Shown here: piece after piece, positions 23,923 through 42,521 of the stretch
How the letters are laid out: each line of letters opens with the position of its first letter
How positions within the stretch are numbered: position 1 is the stretch's first letter
Assembly (NCBI GenBank): GCA_048941625.1
Contig: JBHLNK010000006.1
Coordinates: forward strand, 1,652-65,651
DNA from: Promethearchaeota archaeon
GTDB taxonomy: Archaea; Asgardarchaeota; Lokiarchaeia; Sigyniarchaeales; SOKP01
Reading direction: 5' to 3'
DNA: 64,000 bases
Notes under the pieces: generated by a model
Databases searched by the model: none
What the model saw: the letters and a program-made list of their open reading frames with translations, nothing else
What the model was told of the DNA's origin: nothing
Made by a program: the position numbers and the translations under genes

Positions 23923-25059
23923 TTAAATCATCTCCAAGAAGGCTTCTATCCTTGTACTAAGTTGACCTCTAATTGCTCTTGAATAATCTCTCTCCAAATT
24001 TAAAACCTGAATACCTTTTTCTTGTAAATTATTTTTCAAATGAGCAGACATAAGGGAAATGTGATCACAGAACTTTATAATATGATTTATAATTCCTAAT
24101 TTTCTTCCAGTTCTTTTAAAATGCTTTTGATAAATATTTTCTATTTGTTTTATCTTATTTTCTAAAAAATTAGGAACAGAATGATCTCCATAAATATTTT
24201 TCTTAAACCGCTGAACTAATAAATCATAAGGATCCTGGATTGATTCTAATTCATTGTCCTCAAAGATTTGGTAATAATAATTGTTTCCAATCCAAGTATC
24301 AAAATAAATAATATTTCCCCCACCTTCTTCAATTAGATCGATTAAATAATCATTTATAAACAAAGAACCTCCTGTTATTAAAATATCTTTAGAATTTGGA
24401 GAATTTAGATAACCTTCTTGTTTAAATTTTTGAAGGTGAGATTCTAATTGAGAAAGGAATGAAGGTCCATATAACATAGCCTGTTGAATTATGCTTAATT
24501 TTTCAGATCCACTAATTTCTAGCAAACTAAAATCTAGAATTTTTTTTTTAAATACATTATAGTTCTCGATGCTTTTCTTTAAATTTGCATCTACAATCTT
24601 AGTTCCAGTGATTTCTTCTAATTGATTTTTAAAATCAATTAATTCCAATTTAAAATATTCCAAACTTTTTTTTTTCATAGTATAGGGAATATAGAAATTC
24701 AAACGTTCTATTTTAAAGTATTTGGAAATTATCTCAGAAGCACAAATATCACTTACACAATGATTTGATACAATGAAGTAATCTATGAGATCAATAAATT
24801 CGAATTCATTAGGCTTCAATGAAAATAATCCAATACATGATTGAGCAAATGCACAGGTAGATGGAGGTAAATAATCATGACTAGCATCCATTAATTCATC
24901 ATTACCAGAAAAAATCATTCTTAATGGGATAAAACCAGCAGCATCTAATAACTCCTCTGGTATATTATCATGAGAAATGAATGCAACAATTTTCTTACCT
25001 TCTCCTTTTTTATCTTTTAAGAATTGAGTGTAATTGGAAAGAAGCTCTAAATTTTTCAT
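23923..25059 (-). CDS. 2-hydroxyacyl-CoA dehydratase / benzoyl-CoA reductase family, D-component subunit
   Basis: Cys-containing N-terminal region (PPSTCAFAQSCIG), C-terminus ...STRIEAFLEMI parallel to its partner subunit, and gene context. Confidence 0.75.
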   Translation of the reverse strand: MKNLELLSNYTQFLKDKKGEGKKIVAFISHDNIPEELLDAAGFIPLRMIFSGNDELMDASHDYLPPSTCAFAQSCIGLFSLKPNEFEFIDLIDYFIVSNHCVSDICASEIISKYFKIERLNFYIPYTMKKKSLEYFKLELIDFKNQLEEITGTKIVDANLKKSIENYNVFKKKILDFSLLEISGSEKLSIIQQAMLYGPSFLSQLESHLQKFKQEGYLNSPNSKDILITGGSLFINDYLIDLIEEGGGNIIYFDTWIGNNYYYQIFEDNELESIQDPYDLLVQRFKKNIYGDHSVPNFLENKIKQIENIYQKHFKRTGRKLGIINHIIKFCDHISLMSAHLKNNLQEKGIQVLNLERDYSRAIRGQLSTRIEAFLEMI

Positions 25060-25166
25060 TTTATATTTTTATCTCAATGAATTATTAATCAAAAAAGAGT
25101 TAATTATTCAAAAAATTTATTATAATAGTTAAAAACCTTATTTTTCAAAAAAAAAGATGATTTTAC

Positions 25167-25958
25167 TCAACCATGTTTTTGGTCTTGAGCTATTAATGCG
25201 GCTCCTAATGCACCTGTAAGTTGAGCACTGCTATTTCCGTTAAATACAGGTATAACTATTTCAAATCCCAATTCTTGCTCCAAAAACTTTTTAACAGCAA
25301 CATTTTTAGCAACACCACCACAAAATACTAAAAGTGGAGCAACACCTATTCTCTTAGCCATTCCTGCAACTCTTTTTGCTATAGATTTATGGATTCCTGC
25401 TGCAATATCTTCCTTTTTTGTTCCTTTTGCAAAAAGAGAAATGACTTCTGATTCAGCAAAGACAGTACAAGTTGAACTAATTGAAGCAGGATTTTTTGCT
25501 TTAAGCGCTAACTCTCCAATTTCTTGAATGGGGACTTCGAGAGCTCCTGCCATAACTTCGATGAATCGCCCTGTTCCTGCTGCACATTTATCATTCATAT
25601 TAAAATCAATAACACTTCCAGTTTTTTTTGATATAACAATAGCTTTAGAATCCTGACCACCAATATCTATAACAGAATTAGCTTCTGGATAGAAATATTG
25701 AACTCCGCGAGCGTGTGCCGTGATCTCTGTTATCCTATCATCAGCAAATGATACTGTATTTCTTCCATATCCCGTACTCATAACATAAACATCACTTTTC
25801 TTTAAATTGTGTTTTTCTAATAATTCATTAAACAAATTATTCCCCACACGTTTAAAATCAAAAGTAGAACGGCTTACACGATAGTCCAATATTTTTTTAT
25901 CATCAAGTAATACTACTTTTGTTTCTAATGAACCAATATCTACTCCACATGTCTTCAT
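25167..25958 (-). CDS. CoA-substrate-specific enzyme activase (HgdC/BcrA/BadF ATPase, ASKHA fold)
   Basis: CGVDIGSLETKVV, IDIGGQDSKAI, NDKCAAGTGRFIE (cluster-bridging Cys) and FCGGVAKN. Confidence 0.9.
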   Translation of the reverse strand: MKTCGVDIGSLETKVVLLDDKKILDYRVSRSTFDFKRVGNNLFNELLEKHNLKKSDVYVMSTGYGRNTVSFADDRITEITAHARGVQYFYPEANSVIDIGGQDSKAIVISKKTGSVIDFNMNDKCAAGTGRFIEVMAGALEVPIQEIGELALKAKNPASISSTCTVFAESEVISLFAKGTKKEDIAAGIHKSIAKRVAGMAKRIGVAPLLVFCGGVAKNVAVKKFLEQELGFEIVIPVFNGNSSAQLTGALGAALIAQDQKHG

Positions 25959-26034
25959 TTTTCTAATCCTATTATGTTTATTATCTAACTGAGTTGTAAA
26001 ATGAAAGTCAAAAATTAAAATTTATGATAGAGTT

Positions 26035-26742
26035 CTATCTCAGTAAGAAAACTGAGATAAAAAGGGTAAAGAAAAAAGCTATAGACATCTGAAAAACATT
26101 CTTAATAATCGATTCTTTTGAGACGATTCCCAAGAAAACACCCAATAAAGTTATACATATTAAAATAATCAAAAATGAAATAATGAAAGTAAAAATAGTA
26201 GCAGATGGTACAAACAAAAAAGGAATTAATGGTATTAGACCTCCTAAAAAAGGAGAACCCCCATTTATAAAAGATACAATAATACTTGCATATCTCTCAG
26301 CATGTTCTTGAAGTGTCTTTATTTTTTTTCTTCGCTTTTTCAAGGATAATTTTGGTTTAGAATTTGATTTATGATTTATTTCAATAAACATTGCTTTTTC
26401 AATCTCTTCTATCTCTGAATCGCTTTGTTCATAAATTTCATCAATTTGATTTATCCCCATCGCTATTCTTAACTCCTGTTTTATTTTTTTTTGTTCTGCT
26501 CTCTCTGAGAGATATGACCCTGTTAAACCAGAGATAAACATTGAGATGGAGCTTCCTATCCCTGTTAAAAGTACAAAATGACTATCAACTGTTGGTTGAC
26601 TTCCTTTAAAAACAAGTACAAAAAAACCCAGAAGTACCCCCAAAACAGTTAACATCCCATCGTAAAAGTTATTTACAAAATATCGTCTAGCAATTGCCCA
26701 CAAATTTGTTATTTTTGCGTATATCCTAATTTTTTCAAACAT
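26035..26742 (-). CDS. VIT1/CCC1-family (vacuolar iron transporter-like) membrane protein
   Basis: RRYFVNNFYDGMLTVLGVLLG N-terminal motif, an acidic cytoplasmic loop (SDSEIEEIEK), and C-terminal TM helices. Tandem paralogue of 26828-27484. Confidence 0.6.
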   Translation of the reverse strand: MFEKIRIYAKITNLWAIARRYFVNNFYDGMLTVLGVLLGFFVLVFKGSQPTVDSHFVLLTGIGSSISMFISGLTGSYLSERAEQKKIKQELRIAMGINQIDEIYEQSDSEIEEIEKAMFIEINHKSNSKPKLSLKKRRKKIKTLQEHAERYASIIVSFINGGSPFLGGLIPLIPFLFVPSATIFTFIISFLIILICITLLGVFLGIVSKESIIKNVFQMSIAFFFTLFISVFLLR

Positions 26743-26827
26743 TTTTTTATTGATTTTATACCCTTATTTAAAAAAGTAAAATAGTTTACTTCTTTATATT
26801 TTGTTTTATATAATTACACCCCAACAT

Positions 26828-27484
26828 CTAAATGCCTAGTATTATGGAGACAATTAGTGTAACAATCCCTGCAGTGATTAAATGTAAAGCATATCTTAAT
26901 CGACCACCACCAGAAATTTGTCCAAGAAAAATTCCTAAATAAACTAGTAAACCTGCCAATATAATATATGAAAAAATAAAGTGCATAAAACTCAATGAAA
27001 CTCCAAAGAAGAAGGGTATAAGAGGAAGAGAACTTCCTAGAACTGGAGCTCCTCCATCTACTAAAGAAGCAACAATTGTAGCAAATTTTTCAGCATTTTC
27101 TAATAAGGTTCTTGGTTTCTTTCCTTTACGGTATTTATTTTTAATATATTTTAATTCCACATTAGGTTCTTCCTCATCAACTTCTGCCATTTCTTTCTTC
27201 ATATCTGCCACTTTTTTCTTTCTTTCTGCTTCTTCTGAAAGAAATGCACCCCATAATCCACTTATACCTATAGCGAGAGCTGTAGCAAATCCGGTTATAA
27301 GAACATCTTGGGCTTCAAAAGTTGATGGTTCACTTAGAAAAATCATAAAAATCCCACTTACGATTCCCGCACATGTTAAAGCCCCGTCAAAAGCATTATT
27401 GAAGAACTTTCTTCTACTAATAATTCCTAAATCAGACATTTTTGAATAGCTTTTCCACTTACGAATAGTTTCTTTAACATTCAT
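26828..27484 (-). CDS. VIT1/CCC1-family (vacuolar iron transporter-like) membrane protein
   Basis: RRKFFNNAFDGALTCAGIVSG, an acidic loop (EVDEEEPNVE), and the same helix layout as the neighbour. Confidence 0.6.
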   Translation of the reverse strand: MNVKETIRKWKSYSKMSDLGIISRRKFFNNAFDGALTCAGIVSGIFMIFLSEPSTFEAQDVLITGFATALAIGISGLWGAFLSEEAERKKKVADMKKEMAEVDEEEPNVELKYIKNKYRKGKKPRTLLENAEKFATIVASLVDGGAPVLGSSLPLIPFFFGVSLSFMHFIFSYIILAGLLVYLGIFLGQISGGGRLRYALHLITAGIVTLIVSIILGI

Positions 27485-27649: not shown

Positions 27650-28300
27650 TTGAAGTGCATTCTTGTGAATAAATTAAAAGAAGAAATCATCTCAATGTTG
27701 ATAGAACATTCTAGGATTATTTATACAGTCCTAAGTGATATGGCTGTTTTTTATAATAGATGGGCGGAAGATTATGAAAAAAATAGAACCTCTCTAGAAA
27801 AGAAAAAGAGTAAGATGCAATTAAGAGAAGAAGATGCAGATGCCATTAAAATTCAATTAATTCAAAATTTTTCAGAATCAGGCGCGGGATGGGGTAAATT
27901 TATTTCATTAATATTAAAGATGGATAATGTAATTAACTATCCTTTAGAATTTGTCGATATGTTAACAAAAATTAAATTAGACACTAGATTTAAAGATGAG
28001 ATTAGCAAACGCTATGATAAATTGATGAATAAAACCATTGAAATGGCTAATGTATTAAAATCAGCTATAAAAAGCTTAAGAGATAAACCTGATGTTGTCT
28101 TTAAGAATACCACTACAATTCATGAGTATGAAAACGAAGTCGATACAATTTATAGGCAATTTCTTGACTATTTATATTCTAATTCTGAATTAGATATTAG
28201 AGTTCTCCTAAGATTAAGAGATAGTATTGTACTGCTTGAACAACTAGCTGACCGTATTCATGATATTGCTGATGAAATCAGAGTATTATTATATCAATAG
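27650..28300 (+). CDS. DUF47/PhoU-like helical protein (paralogue of 11478-12155)
   Basis: LIEHSRIIYTVLSDMAVFY...ELDIRVLLRLRDSIVLLEQLADRIHDIADEIRVLLYQ is colinear with the first copy. Lies directly upstream of the ATPase operon. Confidence 0.5.
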   Translation: MKCILVNKLKEEIISMLIEHSRIIYTVLSDMAVFYNRWAEDYEKNRTSLEKKKSKMQLREEDADAIKIQLIQNFSESGAGWGKFISLILKMDNVINYPLEFVDMLTKIKLDTRFKDEISKRYDKLMNKTIEMANVLKSAIKSLRDKPDVVFKNTTTIHEYENEVDTIYRQFLDYLYSNSELDIRVLLRLRDSIVLLEQLADRIHDIADEIRVLLYQ

Positions 28301-28426
28301 GTATTATATTTGAAATTTATGCTAATTTTTTTATACTTTTAACCTATTATAAGAAAATTTATACGCTTAATTTTATTCTTCTCATATAATTAATATTTTT
28401 TTACAGAAAAAATAGAAGTAATTAAT

Positions 28427-28792
28427 ATGAATGGTAAACAAAAATTTTATTTCTACCTTGCTATAGCTCAAGTTATTTTAGTTTTAGTTTTTCTTTTAAC
28501 TATGAATGGCCTTGTAGGATTTGTTAAAGCTCAAACAGAAACTTCATTTGACTATTATAATTCTCCAACAACACCGATCTTAGCAATTTCTGCAGCAATA
28601 GCTATCTCAATTTCAGGATTAGCAGCTGCTCATGTTATAAAGACTGTTGGTACTGCAGCAATCTCGGCTATTTCGGAAAGAGAAGGTGCTTTTGGGAAAG
28701 TAGTAGTTATTGTAGCATTGGGCGAAGCAATTGCGATTTATGGATTGATTATAGCAATATTATTAGTCTTTAATATCCCTGCTCCTCCATAA
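28427..28792 (+). CDS. atpK: A-type ATPase proteolipid subunit K (c) with an N-terminal hydrophobic extension
   Basis: Two-helix hairpin GLAAAHVIKTVGTAAISAISE...VVIVALGEAIAIYGLIIAILL with the ion-binding Glu, preceded by ~35 aa that look like a signal or anchor (...LVGFVKAQ). Confidence 0.85.
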   Translation: MNGKQKFYFYLAIAQVILVLVFLLTMNGLVGFVKAQTETSFDYYNSPTTPILAISAAIAISISGLAAAHVIKTVGTAAISAISEREGAFGKVVVIVALGEAIAIYGLIIAILLVFNIPAPP

Positions 28793-28819
28793 GAAATAAT
28801 AATTTATAATCATTTATTT

Positions 28820-29875
28820 TTGGTGAATTCTACGAGTGTTATTGTTCCATCTTATGCTTATACTCTTATCAAGATAAGTTTCTTAAAACAATTGATAATG
28901 GAGGACAATACTCTTCTTAAGTTACAGGAAATTACAGAGATAAAACAATTTATAGAATTTATTAATATCTTTTATCCTGGTTTTACAGTTGAATCTCCTA
29001 CGTTTGAAAATATAGAAAAAGCACTATTTCATACCTATATAAAATTAATTGGGAAAGTTATTTATATCTCTCCGGAAACAATGAGACTGTTCTTAAGAAG
29101 TTATTTAATGAAATATGAAATTATGAATATTAAACGTATAATACTTGGAACAATTCTAGGTATGAGTGTTGATGAGAAGTCAGCTATGGTAAATATGATG
29201 GTGGAAGAATATTTAGATAATGCAGAATTCATAAAAGAACTCATTGAAATTCCATCTTTAGAAGGAATACGAATTTATATGAGACCAACAATATATAACA
29301 AAGTTATAAGAGAAGGTATTCTCTACTTTAAAAAAACAAATGAAATATTTGTGCTAGAATCTTTCTTAGATCAACTCTATTATAACAATTTAAAAAATGA
29401 GATAACATTTCTCACTCAAAAAGAAAATGTAATGATTACACCATATATAAAATATATTTCAGAGATTTATAATTTGAGACTTATATATAGAGGAATTAAA
29501 AATAAGATTGAAAAAAATCTTTTATTGCAATTACTAGTAGACAATTATTTGTTTATGAATGAAAAGATATTAAGCGAATTAATCAATTTAAATACTAAAG
29601 AAGAATATGAAGATATCCTAACAAATTATTTTAGTAATATTAAAGAATTAAAATCACACTTGATCAATCTTGACAAAGAACATTTTATCTGGTCAATAGA
29701 AAAATTCTATCTAGATTATTACTTCAAATTGTTAGAAATTAAGAATGATGATATAGACTTTCAAGCTATATATAAAATTTTAGAAGTTTTAATAAAAAAA
29801 GACAAAGAAATTCGCTTATATCTTCTACCAAAGTTAACTAATATTATATATAAGAGATACAACCTATTAAAATGA
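28820..29875 (+). CDS. atpC: A-type ATPase subunit C (V-type d homologue)
   Basis: About 350-aa all-helical protein with a YAY...R...L N-terminus and an LMKYEIMNIKRIILG motif typical of subunit C/d. Operon context. TTG start. Confidence 0.7.
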   Translation: MVNSTSVIVPSYAYTLIKISFLKQLIMEDNTLLKLQEITEIKQFIEFINIFYPGFTVESPTFENIEKALFHTYIKLIGKVIYISPETMRLFLRSYLMKYEIMNIKRIILGTILGMSVDEKSAMVNMMVEEYLDNAEFIKELIEIPSLEGIRIYMRPTIYNKVIREGILYFKKTNEIFVLESFLDQLYYNNLKNEITFLTQKENVMITPYIKYISEIYNLRLIYRGIKNKIEKNLLLQLLVDNYLFMNEKILSELINLNTKEEYEDILTNYFSNIKELKSHLINLDKEHFIWSIEKFYLDYYFKLLEIKNDDIDFQAIYKILEVLIKKDKEIRLYLLPKLTNIIYKRYNLLK

Positions 29876-29920
29876 TTTAATAATATCAAGATTAAAGAAG
29901 TCAATTAAAGTTGAAAAAAC

Positions 29921-30232
29921 ATGAATATTTTTGAATGGATAAAGGATATCGAAAAGACATATGATGATTTAATCGATAATGCAAAAGAGGTAAATTTGAA
30001 TGATATTGAAAAATTTAGGGAAGAACAAATAAAAGAATTTGATAAATTTCTTAATAAAAAGAATGAATTAGTAGATAATGCTTTAATAAATCTCTCTAAA
30101 GATGTAGATTCTCAAATTAAAGTATTCAGAGAAAAGATGGATAAGGCAATTAATAAAATTGAAAAAGTATTTCAAAAAAATATTCAAAAAATACAAAATT
30201 TAATTATAACTGAAACAGGGTTGGATTTTTAA
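29921..30232 (+). CDS. atpH: A-type ATPase peripheral-stalk subunit H (V-type G-like), tentative
   Basis: 103-aa single long charged helix. Sits between C and F, and its stop overlaps the atpF ATG (TAATG). Confidence 0.5.
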   Translation: MNIFEWIKDIEKTYDDLIDNAKEVNLNDIEKFREEQIKEFDKFLNKKNELVDNALINLSKDVDSQIKVFREKMDKAINKIEKVFQKNIQKIQNLIITETGLDF

Positions 30233-30555
30233 TGTTAGATCAAAAAATTCACATTTTAGGACAAGAAGATTTAGTAGTTTTACTTGGACTTTTAGGTTTA
30301 GAAGGCACAATCATCAACTCTGAAGAACAATTCTCAAAAGAATTTAACAAATTAATAGATGATCCTTCTATTGGCATGATTGTAATCGCGATGGCTTTAA
30401 GTGAAGATTTAATAAATAATTTAATAAATTTTAAACTCAACAACAAACAGCCCTTCATATTTATTCTACCAGATATTTTCCAGCCTCGGATTGATGAGGA
30501 AGGAAAAATTTTAAACAAAATATTAGATGCAATAAGAGAAATTATATTATCTTAA
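30232..30555 (+). CDS. atpF: A-type ATPase subunit F
   Basis: KIHILGQEDLVVLLGLLGLEG...IGMIVI pattern and ~105 aa size typical of subunit F. Confidence 0.75.
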   Translation: MLDQKIHILGQEDLVVLLGLLGLEGTIINSEEQFSKEFNKLIDDPSIGMIVIAMALSEDLINNLINFKLNNKQPFIFILPDIFQPRIDEEGKILNKILDAIREIILS

Positions 30556-30607
30556 GAGGTGATTAAAAATTTCGGAAGAAAGAGAATTTAGAGAAAGAAT
30601 TGGAAAT

Positions 30608-31297
30608 TTGGGAATTTATTTAATTGAGAAAGCTCAAAAGGAAATTGAAGAATTTAATAAACAAACTCTTTTTCAAAAGGCAGAAATTAAGAAAAGGAAT
30701 TTAGAAAGAAGTCAAGAAAGAGCACAAAAATTAAAAGAACAATTCATTGAAAATTATAATCAGTTCCTTAATCAATCATTATCTACAACATTACTAGAAG
30801 GAAAAGAGAAATTTTTGAATTTAAAAAATTCCCTAATTAAGACTCTTAAAAATAATCTATTAAATCACCTTAAAAATAGAATTAACGATAATTATATGAA
30901 TTATTTAGATTTTTTATTTAATAACATAAACAGCATTAAAAACAATATTGATAAACCCCAAGCAATCGAAATTATTTTTAATTCAAAAGAATATAATTAC
31001 TTTATCAAGAACCCTGAAAAACTTCAAGGTCAATTCAAAAATCCTGTAGAAATTAATAAGGATAATATTGATTTTATTGGAGGGTTTAAAGTTTCATTAG
31101 GTACTGGGGTGATTTCTTATGATTACACAATAGATAATTTAATCGATAAGAAATCTTCATTCATTCAAAAGGAGATTTCTCAAATTATTGATGATTCAGA
31201 AATAAAAGAAATAGAAAATAAGTTTAATATTTTTATTCAAAATCAAAAATCAAAAATCGACGAATATATTAAGCAATATGATCAAATCCAAATATAA
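30608..31297 (+). CDS. atpE: A-type ATPase peripheral-stalk subunit E
   Basis: Long N-terminal helix (IEKAQKEIEEFNKQ...) and a C-terminal globular part (FIGGFKVSLGTGVISYDYTIDNLI). The start is ambiguous: TTG at 30608, or ATT at 30569 after AGGTG. Confidence 0.7.
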   Translation: MGIYLIEKAQKEIEEFNKQTLFQKAEIKKRNLERSQERAQKLKEQFIENYNQFLNQSLSTTLLEGKEKFLNLKNSLIKTLKNNLLNHLKNRINDNYMNYLDFLFNNINSIKNNIDKPQAIEIIFNSKEYNYFIKNPEKLQGQFKNPVEINKDNIDFIGGFKVSLGTGVISYDYTIDNLIDKKSSFIQKEISQIIDDSEIKEIENKFNIFIQNQKSKIDEYIKQYDQIQI

Positions 31298-33122
31298 AAA
31301 TAATCCAGAACATGGATATATTTCTGCTATAATGGGTTCATTAATCAAGGTTAAAGGATTAGAACGCAAAATCAAACTACATGAATTAATTAAAGTAATT
31401 AATTATAATCTTTTAGGGGAGGTTATTCAGATTTATGCTGATCATATTGTAGCCCAGTGCTTTGAAGATACATCAAACTTAAAGATAAATGATGAAGTTA
31501 TTTCTTTAAACGAACCACTTTCTATGGAATTAGCACCAGGATTACTAGGGAGAATTTTTGATGGAATTCAAAGACCGTTACAAAACGCATTCGCAAAATA
31601 TGAAGATGGTGGCCTTCAGCGAGGTTTAGAGATAGAAGCATTATCAAGAGAAAAAAAATGGCATTTTAAACCGACAATTAAAAAAAATCAAATAGTTTCT
31701 AGTGGTGATGTAATAGGAATAGTACAAGAGACACCTTTAATTGAACATAAGATAATAGTTCCACCATCAGTTACCGGAAATTTAACTTATGTTTCAAAAG
31801 AAGGAGATTATACTATAATTGATGAGATTTATAGAGTAAAAAAAGAAAGTGAAGAAAAAACTTTTCCAATGCTACAAAAATGGCCTGTGACTAAAGCAAG
31901 ACCGTTTAAAGAAAGAAAAATTCCGAATGAACCTTTAATCACAGGAATTCGAGTTATAGATTTATTATTTCCTATAACAAAAGGAGGAACTATTGGGGTT
32001 CCAGGAGGATTTGGGACAGGCAAGACTGTTATTCAACACTCTTTAGCCAAATGGTGTAATGCAGATATAATTATCTTTGTTGGTTGTGGGGAGCGAGGGA
32101 ATGAGATAGCTGATGTACTTAACCAATTTTCTGAATTGATTGATCCACAAACCAAACGTCCTTTATTAGAACGAATTGTTCTCATCGCTAACACTTCAAA
32201 TATGCCTGTATCAGCACGTGAAGCTAGTATTTTTTCAGGAGTAACTATAGGTGAGTATTATCGTGATATGGGGTATGATGTTGCAGTTCTAGCAGATAGT
32301 ACATCAAGATGGGCGGAATCTCTGAGAGAAATTTCCGGATTATTAGAAGAAATGCCTGCAGAAGAAGGTTATCCCGCATATTTACCTTCTAAACTTTCTA
32401 GTTTCTATGAAAGAGCTGGAGTCGTTGAATTGCATGGAAATGGTGTTAGTGGGGAAGAAAGAATTGGATCTTTGACTATTATTGGTTCTGTTTCCCCTCC
32501 TGCTGGAGATTTTAGTGAACCTGTTACTGCCACTACTAAAAATTTTGTACAAGGTATCTGGGCTTTAGACGCAGCACTTGCTTATTCAAAGCATTATCCT
32601 GCAATTAATTGGTTGAATTCATATTCAAATTATCCAGATTATATTTCTGAATGGTGGTTTGACAGAGATTTCGATTGGGTAGAAATAGATGCTGATTGGT
32701 TGAATTGTCGTGAACAAGTAAATAAAATTTTATCTAAAGATAATGAATTGAAATATATTACTCAATTAATAGGAGAAGAAAATTTGCCAGAAGATCAGCA
32801 ACTAATAATTTTCATTGCTAAATTAATTAAAAATGGGTTCTTAATTCAAAATGCCTTCGACGATATAGATAGTTATACAAGTATTAAGAAATTATTAGGT
32901 TCAATAAAATTAATTCTTTTGTTATATAAAGAAAGTAAAGAGCTTCTAAAGGAGGGTTTTTACACTGAAGAAATTAAAGATCTAAGGGTAATTGATGATA
33001 TTTTAAGATTAAATCGTACTATCCCTAATAATGATTTTGATAAAATAGAGAAAGTAAAAAAAAAATTATTAAATCAAATAGAGGAACTTAAATTAACTCG
33101 CAAGGTATATGGTAAAAAATGA
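31278..33122 (+). CDS. atpA: A-type ATPase catalytic subunit A (copy 1, canonical GER motif)
   Basis: [21 protein letters not shown], Walker [23 protein letters not shown], Walker [33 protein letters not shown]. The ATGA overlap with atpB indicates translational coupling. Confidence 0.95.
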
Positions 33123-34507
33123 GTATAATATATAAAAAAATACAACAGATAATTGGACCACTTCTATTCTTAAGAAATGAGCATAGTGCTCAATATGGTG
33201 AGATTGTAAAGATAAGAGCAGGAAATAATATCAGGACAGGACAAATAGTTAAAATGAGTGAAGATATAATAGTTGTTGAAGTTTTCGAGGATACTTCAGG
33301 ATTATCATCAGAGAATGCAGAGATTATCTTTACAGGCGATACTTTTAAAGTTAATATTTCAAAAGACATGTTTGGACAAACATTTAATTCTTTGGGAAGT
33401 CCGATTGATATTAGGTCAAAAAACATCGTAGATTCTGATATCTTGGCAGATGTTCGAAGGGATATTAATGGAACCCCGATAAACCCGTTTGCTAGAGAAT
33501 ATCCTGTCGATATCATCCAAACAGGTATCTCCGTGATCGATGGATTATTTACTCTTATAAGAGGACAAAAGCTTCCCATTTTTAGTGGACAAGGATTACC
33601 ACATAATAAATTAGCTGCTCAGATTGCGACTCAATCAAAAGTTACAACAGAAGAACCTTTTGTTATCATATTTTGTGGAATTGGCATTATTCAAGATGAA
33701 GCAATATATTTCCTAAAACAATTTCAAGAGAGTGGTACTCTTCAAAATATTATTTCTTTTATAAATTTCGCTGATGATCCTATTATTGAAAGATTAATTA
33801 TCCCTCGAGTTGCATTAACTACTGCTGAATATTATGCATTTGAAAAAGATATGCATGTACTAGTAATTTTGATTGATATGACTAATTATGCAGAAGCTCT
33901 TAGAGAATTAAGTTCCGCTAAAGAAGAAATTCCCAGTAGGAAAGGATATCCTGGCTATATTTACTCAGATTTTGCTTCAATTTATGAACGTACAGGAAAA
34001 ATTAAAGGAAAAAAGGGATCAATTACACAAATACCAATCTTGACAATGCCAAACGATGATATATCTCATCCCATTCCTGATACTACTGGCTATATTACCG
34101 AGGGACAATTAGTTCTCAGTCGTAACTTACACAAGAAAGGTATCTATCCTCCTTTTGAGGTATTAGCATCAATATCAAGATTGATGAAAGATGCTATTGG
34201 TGATGAAAAAACAAGAGAAGACCATGCTGATGTAAGTTCTCAATTATTAGCAGCATATTCCAATTATCTTGAAGTAAGAGATTTAATTTCAATTGTAGGA
34301 GAAGATGGTTTGAATATTGATCAAAGGAATTTACTCCAGTTTGGAGTTGATTTTGAACAGAAATTTATTAATCAAAAAGTAAATGAATCACGCGATTTCA
34401 ATCAAACCTTAAATATTTCTTGGCAAACTCTTTCCCATCTAAATAAAAATCAACTGATTAGAATCCATCCAAATTTTATAAATAAGTATTATAACCCTCA
34501 GGTGTAA
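33119..34507 (+). CDS. atpB: A-type ATPase non-catalytic subunit B
   Basis: [91 protein letters not shown]. Confidence 0.95.
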
Positions 34508-35149
34508 ATTATAAGTTTTAGAGAGATCAAGCCAACAAAAACAAATCTATTAAATCTAAAAAGAAGATTAGATTTTGCTGTCAAAGGTCAAAACTTTTTG
34601 GAATTTAGACGAGAGCAACTAATCCTTCAAATAAAAAAATTATGGAAGGAGTATAAAATACAAAGAAGAGAACTAATTATGTTATATAAAGAAACATTAG
34701 GTTCTCTAATTCAAACATATGAAGAAATGGGAAAAAATGAAGTTAATTTAATTAGTAAATTTAGCAAAATTCAGTATAAACCAAGAGTTAACATCCAAAC
34801 AAAAAAGAAAATGGGAATTGTAATTACACAAGTAGATTATCAATTATTCCAAGAAAAGAAACTTCCTGCTTATACTTTTGAAAATACAAGCCATTATCTT
34901 GATGATCTGCTTTTAAACTTAAAAAATTTCTTCAAAAATTTTATAGAATTTTCTGAATTTGAAGATTTACTACTCAAAGTAGCATCCGCCTTTAAAAAAA
35001 TAAACAGAAGGATAAATGGTTTGAAAAATGTTATAACACCAAGACTAGAAACACAGATTAAACAGATTAAAGATATTTTAGAAGAAATTGAAAGAGAGAA
35101 TTATGTAAGATTGAAAAAGACTAAAGATTTAATTATTAAACAAGAATAA
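34508..35149 (+). CDS. atpD: A-type ATPase central-stalk subunit D (5' end extended relative to the ORF track; no canonical start codon available)
   Basis: The frame upstream of the TTG at 34598 encodes ...EIKPTKTNLLNLKRRLDFAVKGQNFLEFRREQLI, the conserved subunit-D N-terminus. It is open only from 34508, immediately after the atpB TAA, and contains no ATG/GTG/TTG before 34598. Confidence 0.8.
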   Translation: MISFREIKPTKTNLLNLKRRLDFAVKGQNFLEFRREQLILQIKKLWKEYKIQRRELIMLYKETLGSLIQTYEEMGKNEVNLISKFSKIQYKPRVNIQTKKKMGIVITQVDYQLFQEKKLPAYTFENTSHYLDDLLLNLKNFFKNFIEFSEFEDLLLKVASAFKKINRRINGLKNVITPRLETQIKQIKDILEEIERENYVRLKKTKDLIIKQE

Positions 35150-35165
35150 CGTAAGTGAGAATATT

Positions 35166-37454
35166 ATGGGTAAAAAAGATGAATTTTGTTTAATGAAAGT
35201 AGATATTAATCAGAATTATAAAGATCAACTTTTAATTGAACTCTCTAACCTAAATATTGTTCATATTAAGCCTAAAGAAAAATCTAAAGAGAAAGTAGAG
35301 ACTGAAGAAAAAAGACCTATTATTGAGAAGATTAATCTTTTAAGAAAAAACTTAAACATCTTATTTAAAAGATTGAATATTAGTGAAACTGATATTAAAA
35401 GCCTAAGAATTAAAAAGTCAGAAAGAATCGAATTTACTGCTAATGATTTAGATGATTTAATTAATCATATCCTTGAAGAAATTGAATTTTTTACAAATCG
35501 AGTCACAGAATTAAATAGTTATGTGACTAAAGCCAATATCGAATTGGAAAATATTCAAATTGCTAAAAAATCTTATAAAGCTCTCGAAAAAATCAATATT
35601 ACGAAAAATTATTCCCAAAATTTAAATCATTTCAAATTTCGTCTTTTTACTACTTTTTCAAAAAATTTAGATAATTTAATTAACCTTTTTGCCTTTACTG
35701 AATTCCCAAATTTTTATAATACGTTCCAAATCTCAGATGATAGAATTGGCTTTTATATAATTTATCCAAAAGATAATGAACAGGAATTTAACGGGAGAAT
35801 AAAATTAATTCATTCTGAAGAAGTCCCGATTTTAAAGAAATATCTTACAGAAACTGGAATTAATTATGATCGAATTGAAATAGAAATTAATTTCATTAAG
35901 GATTTGTTATCTCGATATAATAAAGAAAAGGAGAGAATTGCTAATGATAATTTATTAAAATTTGCAGGAATTAATGAAATTGTTCAAAATATTGAAGAAT
36001 ATAATTGGGCCGCCCAACAATTCGAAACCACATCAACAAATAGAGTAATTTTAAAGTTTTTTGTTCCTTTATCAAAAAAGAAGACAACCCAAAGCGATTT
36101 ATTTGAGAAGTTTAAAGATAATATCATGGTCGAGTCAGTTGATATCTCAAAAAAACGCCCTATTTATGAATCTTATTCCAAAGACCTAATTAAGAAAAAG
36201 AAAGAAAAATTTAAAGAAAAGAGTGAAGATCTAAAGAAAAAGAATGAAAAAGACGAAAAACTAGAAGATTTAAGGGATGTAACTCCAAGGATTATGAAAA
36301 ACTTTTTTCTAATAAGACCCTTTGAAACAATAACTAAAATGTATGGTACACCAGCTTATGCTGAAATAGATCCTACTCCAATAATTGCATTTACATTTCC
36401 GATATTATTTGGTATAATGTTCGGAGATATAGGACATGGTTTAAGTCTAATAATTGCAGGTCTAATGGGTGCATTAGTATTTAGGAAACGAAAAAAGTCA
36501 ATTTCTAGCTTCTCATGGATTATTTTTTTCTGTGGATGGGCGTCCTTACTCTTTGGTTTTTTATATGGTGAATTTTTTGGACATCATGAAATTGAGCTTT
36601 TTGGTAATGTAATTTGGAATTTTGAAGAAAATCCAATAATAATTCCATTTTTTAATGTTAAGTTATATAATCCGTTAGGAAATATTTTATCTGTATTTTA
36701 TTTTGCTATTGTAATTGGAATATTTCATATAATTTTAGGATGGTTTATTCAGTTTTTAAACTATTGGAAGCAGCATAGGAGATATCTTGCTTTTAGTGAT
36801 TCATTAATGAAAATTTTCTTTTTATTAGGTGGGGCAACTCTAATATTTACATTTGGATTTGATCTTAATGTTTGGTTGACTTTTCCTTATCCTATATTAT
36901 TAGTATTGATCCCTGGGCTTTTACTGATACTATCAAAACCATTAGGAAAAATTTTAAAGATTTCATATTTACAGAAAGAATCAATAGGTAGCTTAATAGG
37001 TGAGGGATCAATCGAAACATTTGATACATTACTCTCAGTAATGAGTAACGTTTTATCTTATATTAGATTATTAGCCCTTGCGTTAGCTCACATTGCTCTC
37101 TTATTTGCTATAAACGAAATGGGGAATTTAATTGGAGGAGTAGGACTTGGATTTGATATATTGAAATTAATTGGTGCAATCTTTGGGAATATAATTGTAA
37201 TTCTAATTGAAGGATTACTTGTTTTTATAAATGTCATGAGATTACACTTCTATGAATTTTTCTTCAAATTCTTTCAAGGATCAGGTTCTGAATATTTTCC
37301 ATTCTATTTAGACAATGATTATTCAATTATTAGTTTCAGTAGAGAATTGGATAAAGATATCATATCTGAAGAAATTGACAAAGAAATCGAAATTAAATCA
37401 GTAAGAGAGGAAATTGATAAAGCTAAGAATTATATCATAAATAAATTTAAATAA
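35166..37454 (+). CDS. atpI: A-type ATPase stator subunit I (V-type a homologue)
   Basis: N-terminal cytoplasmic coiled-coil domain with a K/E-rich insert. C-terminal membrane domain has GTPAYAEIDPTP and the essential-Arg helix LSYIRLLALALAH. Confidence 0.9.
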   Translation: MGKKDEFCLMKVDINQNYKDQLLIELSNLNIVHIKPKEKSKEKVETEEKRPIIEKINLLRKNLNILFKRLNISETDIKSLRIKKSERIEFTANDLDDLINHILEEIEFFTNRVTELNSYVTKANIELENIQIAKKSYKALEKINITKNYSQNLNHFKFRLFTTFSKNLDNLINLFAFTEFPNFYNTFQISDDRIGFYIIYPKDNEQEFNGRIKLIHSEEVPILKKYLTETGINYDRIEIEINFIKDLLSRYNKEKERIANDNLLKFAGINEIVQNIEEYNWAAQQFETTSTNRVILKFFVPLSKKKTTQSDLFEKFKDNIMVESVDISKKRPIYESYSKDLIKKKKEKFKEKSEDLKKKNEKDEKLEDLRDVTPRIMKNFFLIRPFETITKMYGTPAYAEIDPTPIIAFTFPILFGIMFGDIGHGLSLIIAGLMGALVFRKRKKSISSFSWIIFFCGWASLLFGFLYGEFFGHHEIELFGNVIWNFEENPIIIPFFNVKLYNPLGNILSVFYFAIVIGIFHIILGWFIQFLNYWKQHRRYLAFSDSLMKIFFLLGGATLIFTFGFDLNVWLTFPYPILLVLIPGLLLILSKPLGKILKISYLQKESIGSLIGEGSIETFDTLLSVMSNVLSYIRLLALALAHIALLFAINEMGNLIGGVGLGFDILKLIGAIFGNIIVILIEGLLVFINVMRLHFYEFFFKFFQGSGSEYFPFYLDNDYSIISFSRELDKDIISEEIDKEIEIKSVREEIDKAKNYIINKFK

Positions 37455-37494
37455 TTTTAATAATCATAAATAAGAGAGCTAAAATATATAGTAT

Positions 37495-37911
37495 ATGGCG
37501 CCGAATAAAATCAGAAATACACATAAAATTTCTGTCATAAGACTTTTTGGTATTATTGTATACTTGGCTATTTTTATATTCATGTTTTATTTTTTAATTA
37601 CATTAGGCTTTAATCCATTTATTATCTTTCTTTTTCTTTTTTTTATCGTTTTAGCTACTATTGGACTTTTTTTCGGGATAAAAAAAAAGAAAATTTATTC
37701 CAGGATGTTTTCCAAAGATAAAAATATAGAGATAACAAGAGAAGATCAAAATGAACAAGTGGAAATATATAACAAAGAACAAATGATTCCTAGACCTGTG
37801 AATCTAGGTTCTAGTTATCGTAAACCATTAATAGATAAATGTAAACATTGTGGAAATATCGTACCAAATTTTGTAAAAAAATGTCCTTTTTGTAATAAAA
37901 ATTTGAGCTAG
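37495..37911 (+). CDS. Two-TM membrane protein with a C-terminal zinc ribbon, function unknown
   Basis: Two hydrophobic helices (IRLFGIIVYLAIFIFMFYFLI; FIIFLFLFFIVLATIGLFFGI), then CKHCGNIVPNFVKKCPFCNKNL (CxxC-x10-CxxC). Confidence 0.5.
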   Translation: MAPNKIRNTHKISVIRLFGIIVYLAIFIFMFYFLITLGFNPFIIFLFLFFIVLATIGLFFGIKKKKIYSRMFSKDKNIEITREDQNEQVEIYNKEQMIPRPVNLGSSYRKPLIDKCKHCGNIVPNFVKKCPFCNKNLS

Positions 37912-37942
37912 CATAAAAGAATTTATTTTATACAAGTAAATT

Positions 37943-39751
37943 ATGAGAGAAATCAATCAACATATGGGATTTATTTCCGAAATAATAGGATCTCTTATTA
38001 AAATAAAAGGTCTGGAAAATCATGTCCGACGTCATGATCTAATTAAAATACCAAAATATAATATTTTAGGCGAAATAATTCAGATTTATTCAGATCATAT
38101 AATTGCTCAGTGTTTTGAACCACTAACAAATATAAACTTAAACGAAGCAGTTATCACGCTTAATGAACCACTCTCCATGGAATTAGCTCCAGGAATTCTA
38201 GGGAATGTTTTCGATGGGATACAAAGACCTTTAGGAAGGCTTTTTAAAGATTTCTCTAATGGCAGATTAGAGAGGGGAATAAAATATCCAAGTCTTTCAA
38301 GGACAAAAAAATGGCATTTCATACCACTTAGAAAAAATAATGAGATTGTTTATGGAGGAGATATTGTGGGGACAGTTCATGAAACTTCATTTATTGAACA
38401 TAAAATAATGGTACCGCCATCCATTGAGGGAAAATTATCCTTTATTGCTCAAGAAGGAGATTATACTATTATTGATGAGATTTTTAAAGTAAAAAACAAA
38501 AATAAAGATCAAATTTTTACAATGCTCCAAAAGTGGCCAATTACCAAAAATCGTCCTTATAAAAGAAAAGAAAATCCTGATGAGCCTCTAATTACAGGCA
38601 TTAGAGTTATAGATTTGCTATTTCCTATTGCAAAAGGAGGAACAACTGCAATTCCAGGAGGTTTTGGAACAGGAAAAACAGTTATACAACAAATGATAGC
38701 TAATTGGTGTGATGCTGACATAATTGTATTTATTGGATGTGGGGAACCTGGTAATGAAATTGCAAATATTATGAAACAATTTTCAGAAAATCTAGATCAA
38801 AGCAGTGGCAAACCTTTATTAGAAAGAGTAATTCTTATTGTAAATACTTCTAATATGCCTGTATCTGCTCGAGAAGCAAGTCTCTTTTCCGGTGTCACAA
38901 TCGCAGAATATTTTCGAGATATGGGATATAATGTAACAGTTCTTGCAGACAGTACTTCGAGATGGGCAGAATCTTTAAGAGAAATTTCGGGATTACTAGA
39001 AGAAATGCCTGCTGAAGAAGGATATCCAGCATACTTACCCTCAAAACTATCTAGCTTCTATGAAAGAGCTGGTTTAGTAACCACTTTAGGAAAAGATCAT
39101 TTAGGGAAGGAAAGAAAAGGATCAGTTTCAATTGTTGGAACTATCTCCCCTCCCGCAGGTGATTTCAGTGAACCTGTAACAGCAACAACTAAACGTCTTG
39201 TTCAAGTTTTTTGGGCATTGGATCCTAATTTAGCATATTTAAAACATTATCCTGCTATTAATTGGTTGAACTCATATTCTAATTATCCTCAATTTATAAG
39301 TGAATGGTGGTATAATAGAGATATTGAATGGCCTGAGTTTGATTTTGACTGGTCTGAGTGTAGAAAACAAGTAAATGAAATCCTGTCAATGGAACAAGAT
39401 TTAAACCATGTAGTTCAGTTAATTGGAGAAAAAAACTTACCTGAAGAACAACGCTTGACTCTTTTTATTGCTAAAATGATTAAAAATGGTTTTCTTATCC
39501 AGAATGCTTATAATGATATAGATAATTTCACAAGTGTTAAAAAATTGTTAGCTACTATTAAACTGATTCTTTTAATTAAAAAAGAGGGTGAAAAGTTAAT
39601 AGAACAAGGGATATTGATTGAAAAATTTTTAGATCCAGATTTAATAAACTCAATTCTCCGAATAAGTCAGACTATCCCAAATCAAAACTTCAAAAAAATT
39701 GAAGAGATAAAATTTAAAATTCTAAAAAGAATAAGAGCAATAACTTTATAA
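37943..39751 (+). CDS. A-type ATPase subunit A paralogue (copy 2) with GEP in place of the GER catalytic motif
   Basis: Full-length colinear match to copy 1, including Walker [12 protein letters not shown] and Walker [33 protein letters not shown]. The motif reads [10 protein letters not shown], with the CCT Pro codon at 38747-38749. Confidence 0.9.
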
Positions 39752-39774: not shown

Positions 39775-40368
39775 CTATGGTTTAAACCACTCAAAAAAGT
39801 AATAGCTACATGTTAAAGGATTTGCAATTACAAACTTTTTTCTAACAGAAGTAGCTAAACGTCCTGCTCTAACCATATCAATTGCCGTAATCTCTGAATC
39901 ATGTGGTAAAACATGAACCATGAAAAGAGAATGTTCAAGTCCTGGTCCAAGACGATAAACTACAAAATCAGCACCAAATTTTAAACCAGGTCTAGGAATA
40001 TAACCTTTTTCTCGTAGATCTTTATAGATAACATATTTTTCATTGAATTTATGATGCTTTTCCATTGCTATACCATGAAATGTGTCTGGCGTTAAAAATT
40101 CATTACTCTTTACATCAAAAATAGTTATTTGATTCAATTCTAACAAATAATAAGCTTCAATAAGAGATAATTCACTTGGTTTGGAAAAATATTCTAATCT
40201 TGGTTTATGGATCCCTAAGGGAGACCCAAAAAAACCTTTTTTAACATATAAGTAGGAAGCATATAATGGATTGAAGACAATTACTCTAGAATTAATAAAT
40301 TTCGTTGGAATTTTATCTGGGACTTCAATATCATCAAGAGATATTTGCTCATTATTTGCTTGATTCAT
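39775..40368 (-). CDS. endA: tRNA-splicing endonuclease (tRNA-intron lyase)
   Basis: C-terminal catalytic domain LREKGYIPRPGLKFGADFVVYRLGPGLEHSLFMVHVL...SVRKKFVIA, carrying the Tyr/His/Lys catalytic pattern. Confidence 0.85.
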   Translation of the reverse strand: MNQANNEQISLDDIEVPDKIPTKFINSRVIVFNPLYASYLYVKKGFFGSPLGIHKPRLEYFSKPSELSLIEAYYLLELNQITIFDVKSNEFLTPDTFHGIAMEKHHKFNEKYVIYKDLREKGYIPRPGLKFGADFVVYRLGPGLEHSLFMVHVLPHDSEITAIDMVRAGRLATSVRKKFVIANPLTCSYYFFEWFKP

Positions 40369-41423: not shown

Positions 41424-42521
41424 ATGCCGGAAGAAAATGAAAAAGTTGAGGATTTTATAAGTTTATGGAAGAAAAAAATGGAAAGTAATGGTGAAAAACC
41501 TAGTGTAATTGGTGAAACTTTAGAGAAGATTAAAGAATTAGAAAATGAAAATAAGATGTTAAGAAGCAAAATTGAATCGAATATCGAATTAATAACTAAA
41601 ACTGAACAATTAGTAAGAAATACAATAGAAGAAAATGAACAATTGAAGAAACAAATTGAAACAAGAGGCAGTGTGGGTACAAGTAATCTCCAACAAAACA
41701 ATATTGAACTTAACAATAAAATTCTAAACCTAGAGAAGAATTTAGTTGAAAAAGAAGTAGAATTAAGAGGAAAGAGCAATGAAATAACCGAACTAAGAAA
41801 TAAATTAACTCAAGCTTCACAAGAAATTCAAAAAAAAGATTCTGAAACGAATCTCGGCCTTATTGAAGGTTTAAAATCAGATTTATCTAAAAAAGATCAG
41901 GAAATTGGTGATCTTAAAAACCAAATTAATGAATTGATAGAAGAAAATTCAGTCTTAAATCAACAGTTAATTGAAAAAATGAAAAAACTACCAATAGATT
42001 ATGTTGTTCCAGTAGAACAGCCGAAACCAACAGTGATTAAACCTCAATCATCAGAACCTTCTTCACACACTCTTGAAATATTATGCCAAGATCTTCAAAC
42101 CGATCTAAATAAATATAAGAAAATTGTTGATAATTTAACAAAAGAGAAAGGCGAACTTGAACAAGCTTTTAAAAATGGAGGTTTTCAATTAGAACCTGAG
42201 GAATTAAAAAGATTAAAAGTTGAAAATGAAAATCTTAAAAATGAAATTTCTCAAATACAAGACTCCTTAAAAAGAAAGCAGAAAGCAGAAGATTTAATGC
42301 CCCTAGTAAATAAAGCTGAAAAGAAAATAAGTGATCTTGAGAACCAGTTGAGAGAAAAAGATCATTTAATCGCAGAACTTAAAGTACAACAAACGAGTCA
42401 ACCATTAACTCCAAAAGGGCCAATGTCAGACTTAGTAGAAGAATTACAGAATACAATCAACAAATTAAAAATCACAATAGAAGAGAAAAATAAAATTATC
42501 GAACAACTTCAAGCATCCTAA
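41424..42521 (+). CDS. Long coiled-coil protein, function unknown
   Basis: 365 aa of heptad-rich E/K/L/N/Q sequence interrupted by a short P/S-rich linker (PVEQPKPTVIKPQSSEPSS). The stop abuts the next ATG (TAAATG). Confidence 0.5.
   Translation: MPEENEKVEDFISLWKKKMESNGEKPSVIGETLEKIKELENENKMLRSKIESNIELITKTEQLVRNTIEENEQLKKQIETRGSVGTSNLQQNNIELNNKILNLEKNLVEKEVELRGKSNEITELRNKLTQASQEIQKKDSETNLGLIEGLKSDLSKKDQEIGDLKNQINELIEENSVLNQQLIEKMKKLPIDYVVPVEQPKPTVIKPQSSEPSSHTLEILCQDLQTDLNKYKKIVDNLTKEKGELEQAFKNGGFQLEPEELKRLKVENENLKNEISQIQDSLKRKQKAEDLMPLVNKAEKKISDLENQLREKDHLIAELKVQQTSQPLTPKGPMSDLVEELQNTINKLKITIEEKNKIIEQLQAS

Follow-up and report, generated by a model that had tools for sequence, protein, structure and literature searches.

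To our knowledge, each rotary ATPase complex works with a single kind of catalytic subunit, and the sole "dead" subunit of the head is the ancient alpha/B subunit; we found nothing to the contrary in the literature. The 64,000-nucleotide stretch of contig JBHLNK010000006.1 studied here (the window, with positions counted from its first letter) comes from a Promethearchaeota archaeon and raises the question of why an A/V-type ATPase cluster (27650-39751, + strand) should encode two A subunits, the second of which lacks an arginine of the catalytic site. Promethearchaeota is the present NCBI name of the Lokiarchaeota phylum in the Asgard kingdom, and the best database matches were metagenome-assembled genomes (MAGs) of Promethearchaeota. 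The original prediction was that the second gene, A2, encodes a catalytically impaired copy of the canonical subunit, A1, and is partnered with a small membrane protein encoded just upstream of it. Our analyses established A2 as a conserved, derived paralogue of A1 and showed that the small protein occurs more widely than A2. The three genes concerned are as follows.

31278-33122, + strand: A1, the canonical catalytic subunit A, with GER (Arg codon CGA at 32094-32096)
37495-37911, + strand: small membrane protein of 138 aa, with a transmembrane (TM) hairpin, a conserved LYSRMF motif, a linker and a C-terminal CxxC-x10-CxxC zinc ribbon
37943-39751, + strand: A2, subunit A paralogue with GEP, 602 aa, assigned from its open reading frame (ORF), Pfam, NF003220 and its orthologues

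Identity of A2

The gene at 37943-39751 encodes a full-length paralogue of A1 with a complete domain set, as had been proposed, and the by-eye estimate that the two proteins are two-thirds identical was borne out by BLASTP (388 of 598 residues identical, or 65%, with 83% positives and 0 gaps). The Pfam domains PF16886, PF00006 and PF22919 (barrel-sandwich insertion, nucleotide-binding domain and V/A C-terminal domain, respectively) were identified in A2; PF02874, the N-terminal barrel, was sub-threshold in the window A2 and is recorded for several of its orthologues. Against the subfamily model NF003220 ("V-type ATP synthase subunit A", cut-off 470), A2 scored 727 bits and A1 765, and both missed the equivalog TIGR01043 (cut-off 972), with 728 and 756 bits, respectively. 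Both proteins are publicly annotated as "V-type ATP synthase subunit A".

The Walker A motif, the catalytic Glu and the Walker B motif had been described as retained in A2, and all three were invariant in an alignment of 28 sequences (23 A2 and 5 A1). The residues of A2 on which the argument turns are listed below.

38657-38680, + strand: Walker A / P-loop, GGFGTGKT, aa 239-246; G239-K245 invariant in the 28-sequence alignment
38744-38746, + strand: catalytic Glu268, in GEP; invariant in the same alignment
38747-38749, + strand: Pro269 (CCT), replacing the Arg that binds the gamma-phosphate or inorganic phosphate (Pi); Pro in all 23 locus-derived A2, against Arg in all 18 A1
38765-38767, + strand: Asn275 (Asp to Asn, D279N in A1 numbering), six residues past the lost Arg; Asp in 18/18 A1 and Asn in 23/23 A2
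38882-38884, + strand: Leu314 (Ile to Leu, I318L in A1 numbering), A2-defining
38948-38950, + strand: Walker B Asp336, in LADSTSRW; invariant in the 28-sequence alignment
39239-39241, + strand: Leu433 (Ser to Leu, S437L in A1 numbering), A2-defining, three residues ahead of the KHYPAINW Tyr

Apart from the GER Arg, A2 agreed with subunit A in every sequence criterion tested. Other assignments were tried and rejected. A2 is not a subunit B, as it scored 130 bits against NF003235 (cut-off 349), was 28% identical to B and had kept the P-loop and the Glu. Nor is it a FliI/SctN-type ATPase (158 bits against 379.5 for TIGR01026; 164 against 605 for TIGR02546) or a mycoplasma F1-like paralogue (NF045858, 103 bits against a cut-off of 850). 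As stated in the original prediction, no second B accompanies A2: none was found in the window by tblastn, and none in the approximately 30 related loci.

Loss of the GER arginine and other A2-defining changes

The predicted change from GER to GEP was confirmed at the codon level, with CGA (Arg, in GCGERGNE) in A1 and CCT (Pro, in GCGEPGNE) in A2, and in alignment the A2 Pro lined up with the GER Arg of P. horikoshii A (PDB 1vdz/3m4y). Among the best 120 A2 database clusters, GEP was present in 107, far more than chance would give; 98 of these read GCGEPGNE and 9 a near variant, and Walker A was intact in every one. The remaining 13 were A1 orthologues with GER. The Pro was invariant in every A2 copy, comprising these 107 clusters, the 23 locus-derived copies and locus L034. 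GER was present in all of the best 120 A1-type matches.

Only ten positions separated the A1 and A2 clades at 90% or above. Four of the changes (R273P, D279N, I318L and S437L) were universal in A2 and derived, their polarity having been set with deep-branching A2 copies, single-copy lineages and P. horikoshii as outgroup. Since the single-copy lineages and P. horikoshii hold the A1 state at all four positions, A2 is the derived, neofunctionalised copy. Judging from its position in the motif, the Tyr of KHYPAINW, close to S437L, probably corresponds to E. hirae A Phe425. The latter is an ATP-binding residue (bioRxiv 10.1101/2021.12.07.471682). D279N lies on the "arm" helix, as this helix is set for E. 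hirae A (residues 261-275; PMC5095293).

Three residues hold the gamma-phosphate in E. hirae V1, namely A-Lys238, A-Arg262 (the first residue of the arm helix) and B-Arg350 (PMC5095293). In E. coli F1 the equivalent residue, betaArg-182, is needed for Pi binding, for the transition state and for high-affinity MgATP binding, but not for MgADP binding; betaR182Q and even betaR182K lose ATP synthesis and Pi binding, with low ATPase activity remaining (PMC3268026). Pro can supply none of the functions of the lost Arg, and no compensating basic residue (Arg or Lys) was found among the A2-specific changes of the nucleotide-binding domain. By analogy with the E. coli betaR182 mutants and the E. hirae structures, it can soundly be inferred that A2 would be catalytically impaired. 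F1 also shows "catalytic robustness", as slow rotation persists when other key residues are changed to alanine (PMC5380711), and "crippled" is therefore a safer description of A2 than "dead".

An AlphaFold2 model of A2 built from the 28-sequence alignment was of low confidence (predicted local distance difference test score, pLDDT, 59.8; predicted template modelling score, pTM, 0.42). In this model Pro269 is tentatively placed between strand 260-266 and helix 272-282.

Occurrence of A2 in Lokiarchaeota

One genome per GTDB species was scanned with a profile of the small zinc-ribbon protein, and 24 Promethearchaeota genomes were found. In 23 of them a GEP gene was directly downstream of the gene of the small protein (Zn), with a near-constant order of PhoU-K-C-H-F-E-A1(GER)-B-D-I-Zn-A2(GEP)-EndA(-)-Memo. 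Loki_b31 and Loki_b32 also carry A2, with the operon order kept in Loki_b31. The A2 ORF was intact in more than 100 clusters, at 597-609 aa. More than 20 independent assemblies contained A2, including the closed chromosomes CP070805 and CP070831 (both among the 23), which rules out an assembly artefact.

A2 is thus not absent from all relatives, yet it is not universal, as it is lacking at the MK-D1 locus and in three or more lineages of Lokiarchaeota. L027 and L033 (261-kb contig) have the same synteny from Zn to EndA with no A2 and no remnant of it, and no A2 follows Zn in L030/L031, L032 and L029; in all of these loci the zinc-ribbon gene stands directly after I. In the cultured P. syntrophicum MK-D1, the locus as entered in Supplementary Table 3 of Imachi et al. 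2020 ends A-B-D-I-"Double zinc ribbon"-EndA, with no A2 at that place. No cultured A2-bearing strain was found among the names of the cluster members, which were MAGs only.

The closed 3.34 Mb genome CP070831.1 (L001/L015) had only I-Zn-A2 at the site. The trio adjoins, on its upstream side, a PHP-domain gene of opposite strand, and there was no further ATPase subunit gene within 10 kb upstream. The A1 of this genome was absent among the best 120 A1 matches listed. I, Zn and A2 can thus be separated as a unit from the other ATPase genes.

The submitters' taxonomy of these genomes was inconsistent. One A2 cluster at 90% identity held both Promethearchaeota and Candidatus Hodarchaeota names (P0015/P0345), and MAGs with the same synteny were labelled Hermod-, Odin- or Thorarchaeota (loci L007, L008, L019, L021 and L025); these labels are unreliable. 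We found no description of A2 in the literature, and it is not mentioned in the main text of a paper on ATP synthase evolution (PMC10656485) or of two Asgard papers (PMC10307638 and PMC11291895).

Selection on A2 and its origin

The original prediction had counted about 17 synonymous and no non-synonymous differences over 45 identical codons, and our count agreed: in 32286-32420 and 38939-39073, which encode the same 45 residues, 17 codons differ synonymously and none non-synonymously (18 nucleotide differences). The old duplication under purifying selection that it had deduced was supported across genomes, where the pairwise ratio of non-synonymous to synonymous divergence (dN/dS; Nei-Gojobori method, NG86, closer orthologue pairs) was 0.10-0.20 for A2 and 0.09-0.23 for A1. 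Between the window A1 and A2, dN was 0.25 and dS approximately 1.5, which is saturated. Together, the dN/dS values, the intact ORFs and the fixed operon position indicated that A2 is not a decaying copy.

For the same genome pairs A2 orthologues were 1.24 times more divergent than those of A1, with A2 exceeding A1 in 119 of 120 pairs. The relaxation was strongest in the nucleotide-binding domain (ratio 1.46), which is still the most conserved part of A2. Of the positions invariant in A1, A2 has kept 215 of 277 (78%), across all four domains, and 217 columns were invariant among the 23 A2 copies.

When a neighbour-joining (NJ) tree was rooted with P. horikoshii, the A2 copies formed a monophyletic group (89/100) nested within the lokiarchaeal A sequences, which points to a duplication within the lineage and not to a foreign acquisition. 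The long-branch genome L026 has A2, but its A1 branches outside. The lineages lacking A2 either predate the duplication or have lost A2; the NJ trees, of the A family and of concatenated C+B+D+I, fit either history.

The zinc-ribbon membrane protein

The features ascribed to the small protein were all recovered, namely a predicted TM hairpin (H6-36 and H41-59, pLDDT approximately 90) and the ribbon C116-x2-C119-x10-C130-x2-C133. Its AlphaFold2 model had an overall pLDDT of 71, with the TM hairpin confident, and the ribbon is predicted, by the positive-inside rule, to lie on the cytoplasmic side. A profile search of 1.8 billion representative proteins identified a family of approximately 70 clusters, restricted to Lokiarchaeota and 125-160 aa in length, all with the same hairpin, a LYSRMF-like motif and the C-terminal ribbon. 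Pfam and NCBIfam gave no meaningful match for the protein, and Foldseek searches of the PDB gave nothing at E < 0.4, only generic RanBP2/NZF-type ribbons. No link to the V-ATPase subunits e/f or to Vma21 was shown by the structure or hidden Markov model searches.

The genes of this protein and A2 adjoin in all but one of the 24 species genomes, but the family is wider than A2 and is present without it. The proposal that the protein is A2's dedicated partner or tether was not upheld, as it travels with subunit I and occurs where A2 does not; on the divergent contig L028 its gene is upstream of K. Since the zinc-ribbon gene follows I in loci without A2, A2 was appended downstream of a pre-existing operon member. 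A co-evolution of the ribbon with A2 (CPFCN vs CPxCG) was considered and rejected, because the motif tracks phylogeny: the A2-bearing L026 and L034 share CPxCG with A2-lacking lineages. In MK-D1, DSAG12_01692 (the "Double zinc ribbon" between I and EndA), which by its position and annotation probably belongs to the same family, is listed as transcribed at 180 reads per kilobase per million (RPKM), with 203 for I and 196 for D. The zinc-ribbon protein is an older ATPase-associated membrane protein and not A2's tether. Possibly it serves the membrane sector as an accessory subunit or assembly factor that has so far gone unrecognised.

Role of A2

To ask whether A2 belongs to the ATPase complex, we compared pairwise protein distances in 13 genomes, with the distances of flanking non-ATPase genes regressed out. 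The mean partial correlation with the core ATPase subunits was 0.77 for A2 and 0.77 for A1, the other bona fide subunits giving 0.65-0.82 and the Zn protein 0.65. Values for the neighbouring genes were 0.33 for PhoU_div and -0.14 to 0.39 for EndA, Memo, PfkB and a conserved 365-aa gene. This covariation supports the view that A2 and the Zn protein evolve as part of the ATPase complex.

The reading we favour, to which we give an even chance, is that A2 is a nucleotide-binding, catalytically crippled A isoform that takes a non-catalytic or regulatory place in the head of the same enzyme. In the history proposed, a lokiarchaeal A gene would have been duplicated, and its copy would have come to lie behind I and the zinc-ribbon gene, as the operon's last member at the 3' end. 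A2 would fold like A1 and bind nucleotide, and would make or split ATP not at all or very slowly. It would pair with the single B, which would then have to serve both A1 and A2, and in certain complexes, or under certain conditions, would stand in for A1 at one or more positions of the A3B3 head. A site binding ATP without turnover should stall ATP-driven rotation, and rotation driven by the proton-motive force could pass it; A2 might then be an internal brake or nucleotide sensor that limits wasteful ATP hydrolysis in energy-starved fermenters. The position of A2 as last gene, after the single-copy I, would fit its sub-stoichiometric expression. We regard the specific role of a brake as less probable than the head-subunit role itself.

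A bolder form of this idea, which we consider rather unlikely, is that mixed A1/A2 heads (e.g., two working sites and one ATP-binding dead site) would turn the enzyme into an ATP synthase that runs one way only and resists hydrolysis, or into a motor gated by nucleotide. A2 would then be a recent replay of the catalytic-to-regulatory transition behind alpha/B, and the zinc-ribbon hairpin protein an accessory subunit of the membrane sector.

Several points weigh against A2 being a regulatory head subunit. This placement was deduced from sequence, and the translation of A2, its binding to B and its entry into the complex are predictions. The proposed brake or ratchet draws on the behaviour of hybrid motors. 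A2 is dispensable in some lineages, namely L027, L033, probably L030/L031, and MK-D1 at the locus as tabulated. The covariation values come from only 13 genomes, with non-independent pairs, and could be inflated by transfer of the operon as a unit. Finally, given the catalytic robustness of F1 (PMC5380711), GEP may mean slow rather than dead.

That A2 works outside the rotary head seems to us unlikely. It would there be a free ATP-binding regulator or sensor, or a chaperone that helps B or the stalk to assemble, and it might dock at the membrane on I or the zinc-ribbon protein, as in the tethered moonlighting role of the original prediction. The far 3' position of A2 beside I and Zn, the separability of these three genes in CP070831, the lack of a B2 and the dispensability of A2 would all suit such a role. 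However, A2 retains 78% of the A1-invariant positions over all four domains, N-terminal barrel and C-terminal domain among them, which would be difficult to account for had A2 lost its contacts with B, D and the stalks. In addition, the rate covariation of A2 with the core subunits is as high as that of A1, and the zinc-ribbon protein on which it might dock is widespread without A2.

Somewhat less probable again is that A2 is a working catalytic isoform with altered kinetics, having a low Pi affinity or an Arg supplied in trans, and swapped in conditionally like the isoforms of eukaryotic V-ATPases. Its P-loop, catalytic Glu and Walker B are invariant, its nucleotide-binding domain is its most conserved part, F1 mutants of other key catalytic residues rotate slowly (PMC5380711), and the zinc-ribbon protein encoded next to it has the conserved basic motifs LYSRMF and YRKP. 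Against this, betaR182K, the most conservative change possible, already ends ATP synthesis and Pi binding (PMC3268026), whereas Pro brings no charge at all and no new Arg or Lys compensates for it among the A2-defining positions of the nucleotide-binding domain. The zinc-ribbon protein, moreover, is older than A2, and its motif does not change with the presence of A2. It is hardly credible that A2 is an artefact of assembly or binning, or a duplicate without function that is decaying into a pseudogene: an essential catalytic residue has been lost and some relatives have no A2, but the ORFs are intact in more than 100 clusters with dN/dS of 0.10-0.20, the Pro and three further derived residues are invariant, 217 columns are unchanged among 23 copies, and A2 is found in closed chromosomes and many assemblies.

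Organisation of the ATPase cluster and neighbouring genes

The remaining genes of the cluster, which lies in an AT-rich genome (approximately 28% GC), and the gene that bounds it are as follows.

27650-28300, + strand: PhoU_div/DUF47 gene at the head of the cluster; synteny conserved, no rate covariation with the ATPase
28427-28792, + strand: K (c subunit)
28820-29875, + strand: C/d
29921-30232, + strand: H-like protein of 103 aa, weak H match
30232-30555, + strand: F
30608-31297, + strand: E
33119-34507, + strand: B, the sole non-catalytic subunit
34598-35149, + strand: D (central stalk)
35166-37454, + strand: I (membrane subunit a/I)
39775-40368, - strand: tRNA-splicing endonuclease EndA, convergent, 23 nt past the A2 stop

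The operon ends at the EndA gene, and it is here that lineages differ in having or lacking A2. The spacing of Zn and A2, which are on the same strand, ranged from a 1-nt overlap to 42 nt (5 loci), and co-transcription of A2 with the operon is plausible from this arrangement. The order K-C-H-F-E-A-B-D-I, with I last (28427-37454), was conserved in all Lokiarchaeota loci examined and departs from the archaeal order H-I-K-E-C-F-A-B-D. A scan for sigma-70 promoters and terminators was set aside, as archaeal promoters are not covered by it and T-runs and TATA-like strings are uninformative at 28% GC.

A membrane H+-pyrophosphatase gene at 9380-11449 directly precedes, at 11478-12155, a gene 47% identical to its paralogue, the PhoU_div/DUF47 gene at the head of the ATPase cluster. 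Each of the window's two phosphoanhydride-driven ion pumps thus has a DUF47/PhoU-like gene beside it. Synteny of the ATPase-linked copy holds across nearly all loci, and the MK-D1 entries include it as K07220; its rate covariation with the ATPase was low (0.33). Upstream of the ATPase cluster, on the minus strand (23923-27484), are genes for a 2-hydroxyglutaryl-CoA dehydratase D-component (23923-25059) and a BcrAD/BadFG-type activator ATPase (25167-25958), and two VIT1-family genes (26035-27484). This neighbourhood of dehydratase, activator ATPase and VIT1 recurs in L033, and a VIT-family gene adjoins the MK-D1 cluster in the entries for that strain. Downstream, between Memo and PfkB, the conserved 365-aa gene (41424-42521) has no Pfam family and is syntenic in almost all related loci. 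In one lineage (L002/L023, 11936-14397) a universal stress protein gene and genes of 508 aa and 72 aa are inserted between A2 and EndA, which suggests that the A2-EndA junction can take inserted genes.

Comparison with known systems

The analogy that the original prediction drew with the ancient A/B split is a fair one, and this pair is the nearest known parallel to A2. In the A/B (beta/alpha) pair, too, a catalytic gene was duplicated and one copy lost catalytic residues with the fold kept, and A2 has the same scaffold within the same operon. However, the A/B split is ancient and obligatory, whereas A2 is specific to Lokiarchaeota, 65% identical to A1 and not universal in the phylum. In the window B, I-I takes the place of the E-R of A ([10 protein letters not shown] vs [10 protein letters not shown]), and B is less than 30% identical to A, whereas A2 keeps the P-loop and the Glu and has lost only the Arg. 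A2 looks like an early stage of an A/B-type path, one that is recent and lineage-restricted.

The residue lost in A2 is the same GER residue as that altered in the E. coli betaArg-182 mutants (R182Q and R182K) and as E. hirae A-Arg262. Those mutants were engineered in a sole catalytic subunit, whereas the change in A2 is naturally fixed and stands beside an intact A1, and three more changes have been fixed along with it. In the F1-like clusters of mycoplasmas (e.g., the gliding-motor subunits MMOB1660/MMOB1670), too, additional copies of head subunits of a rotary ATPase have taken on a derived role. These clusters consist of alpha-like and beta-like paralogues in separate operons with partners of their own; A2, in contrast, has no duplicated B-like partner and lies within the canonical operon.

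The homohexameric type III secretion ATPases FliI/SctN resemble A2 in belonging to the A/beta superfamily and in having no non-catalytic partner gene. FliI/SctN keep the GER Arg. A2 differs from them in keeping the A-specific barrel-sandwich insertion PF16886 and the [10 protein letters not shown] segment of A1; this segment, common to A1 and A2, is presumably where B carries its Arg finger. In eukaryotic V-ATPases, alternative subunit paralogues likewise enter one rotary complex and tune its behaviour. Those isoforms are catalytically competent or are of non-catalytic subunits, and we know of no V-ATPase isoform without a core catalytic residue.

Significance

The A2 observation is solid and would surprise specialists on rotary ATPases; its mechanism is inferred. 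Since A1 and A2 bear the same annotation name, metabolic reconstructions and ATPase phylogenies can take the wrong paralogue unnoticed. Lokiarchaeota are slow-growing, energy-limited Asgard archaea, from the phylum that supplied the first Asgard genomes and cultures, and their bioenergetics is central to models of eukaryote origin. If the proposed role is correct, A2 would offer a natural example of a step between catalytic and non-catalytic ring subunits in evolution, and would represent a new form of rotary-motor regulation, exerted from inside the catalytic ring and not via inhibitor proteins or disassembly.

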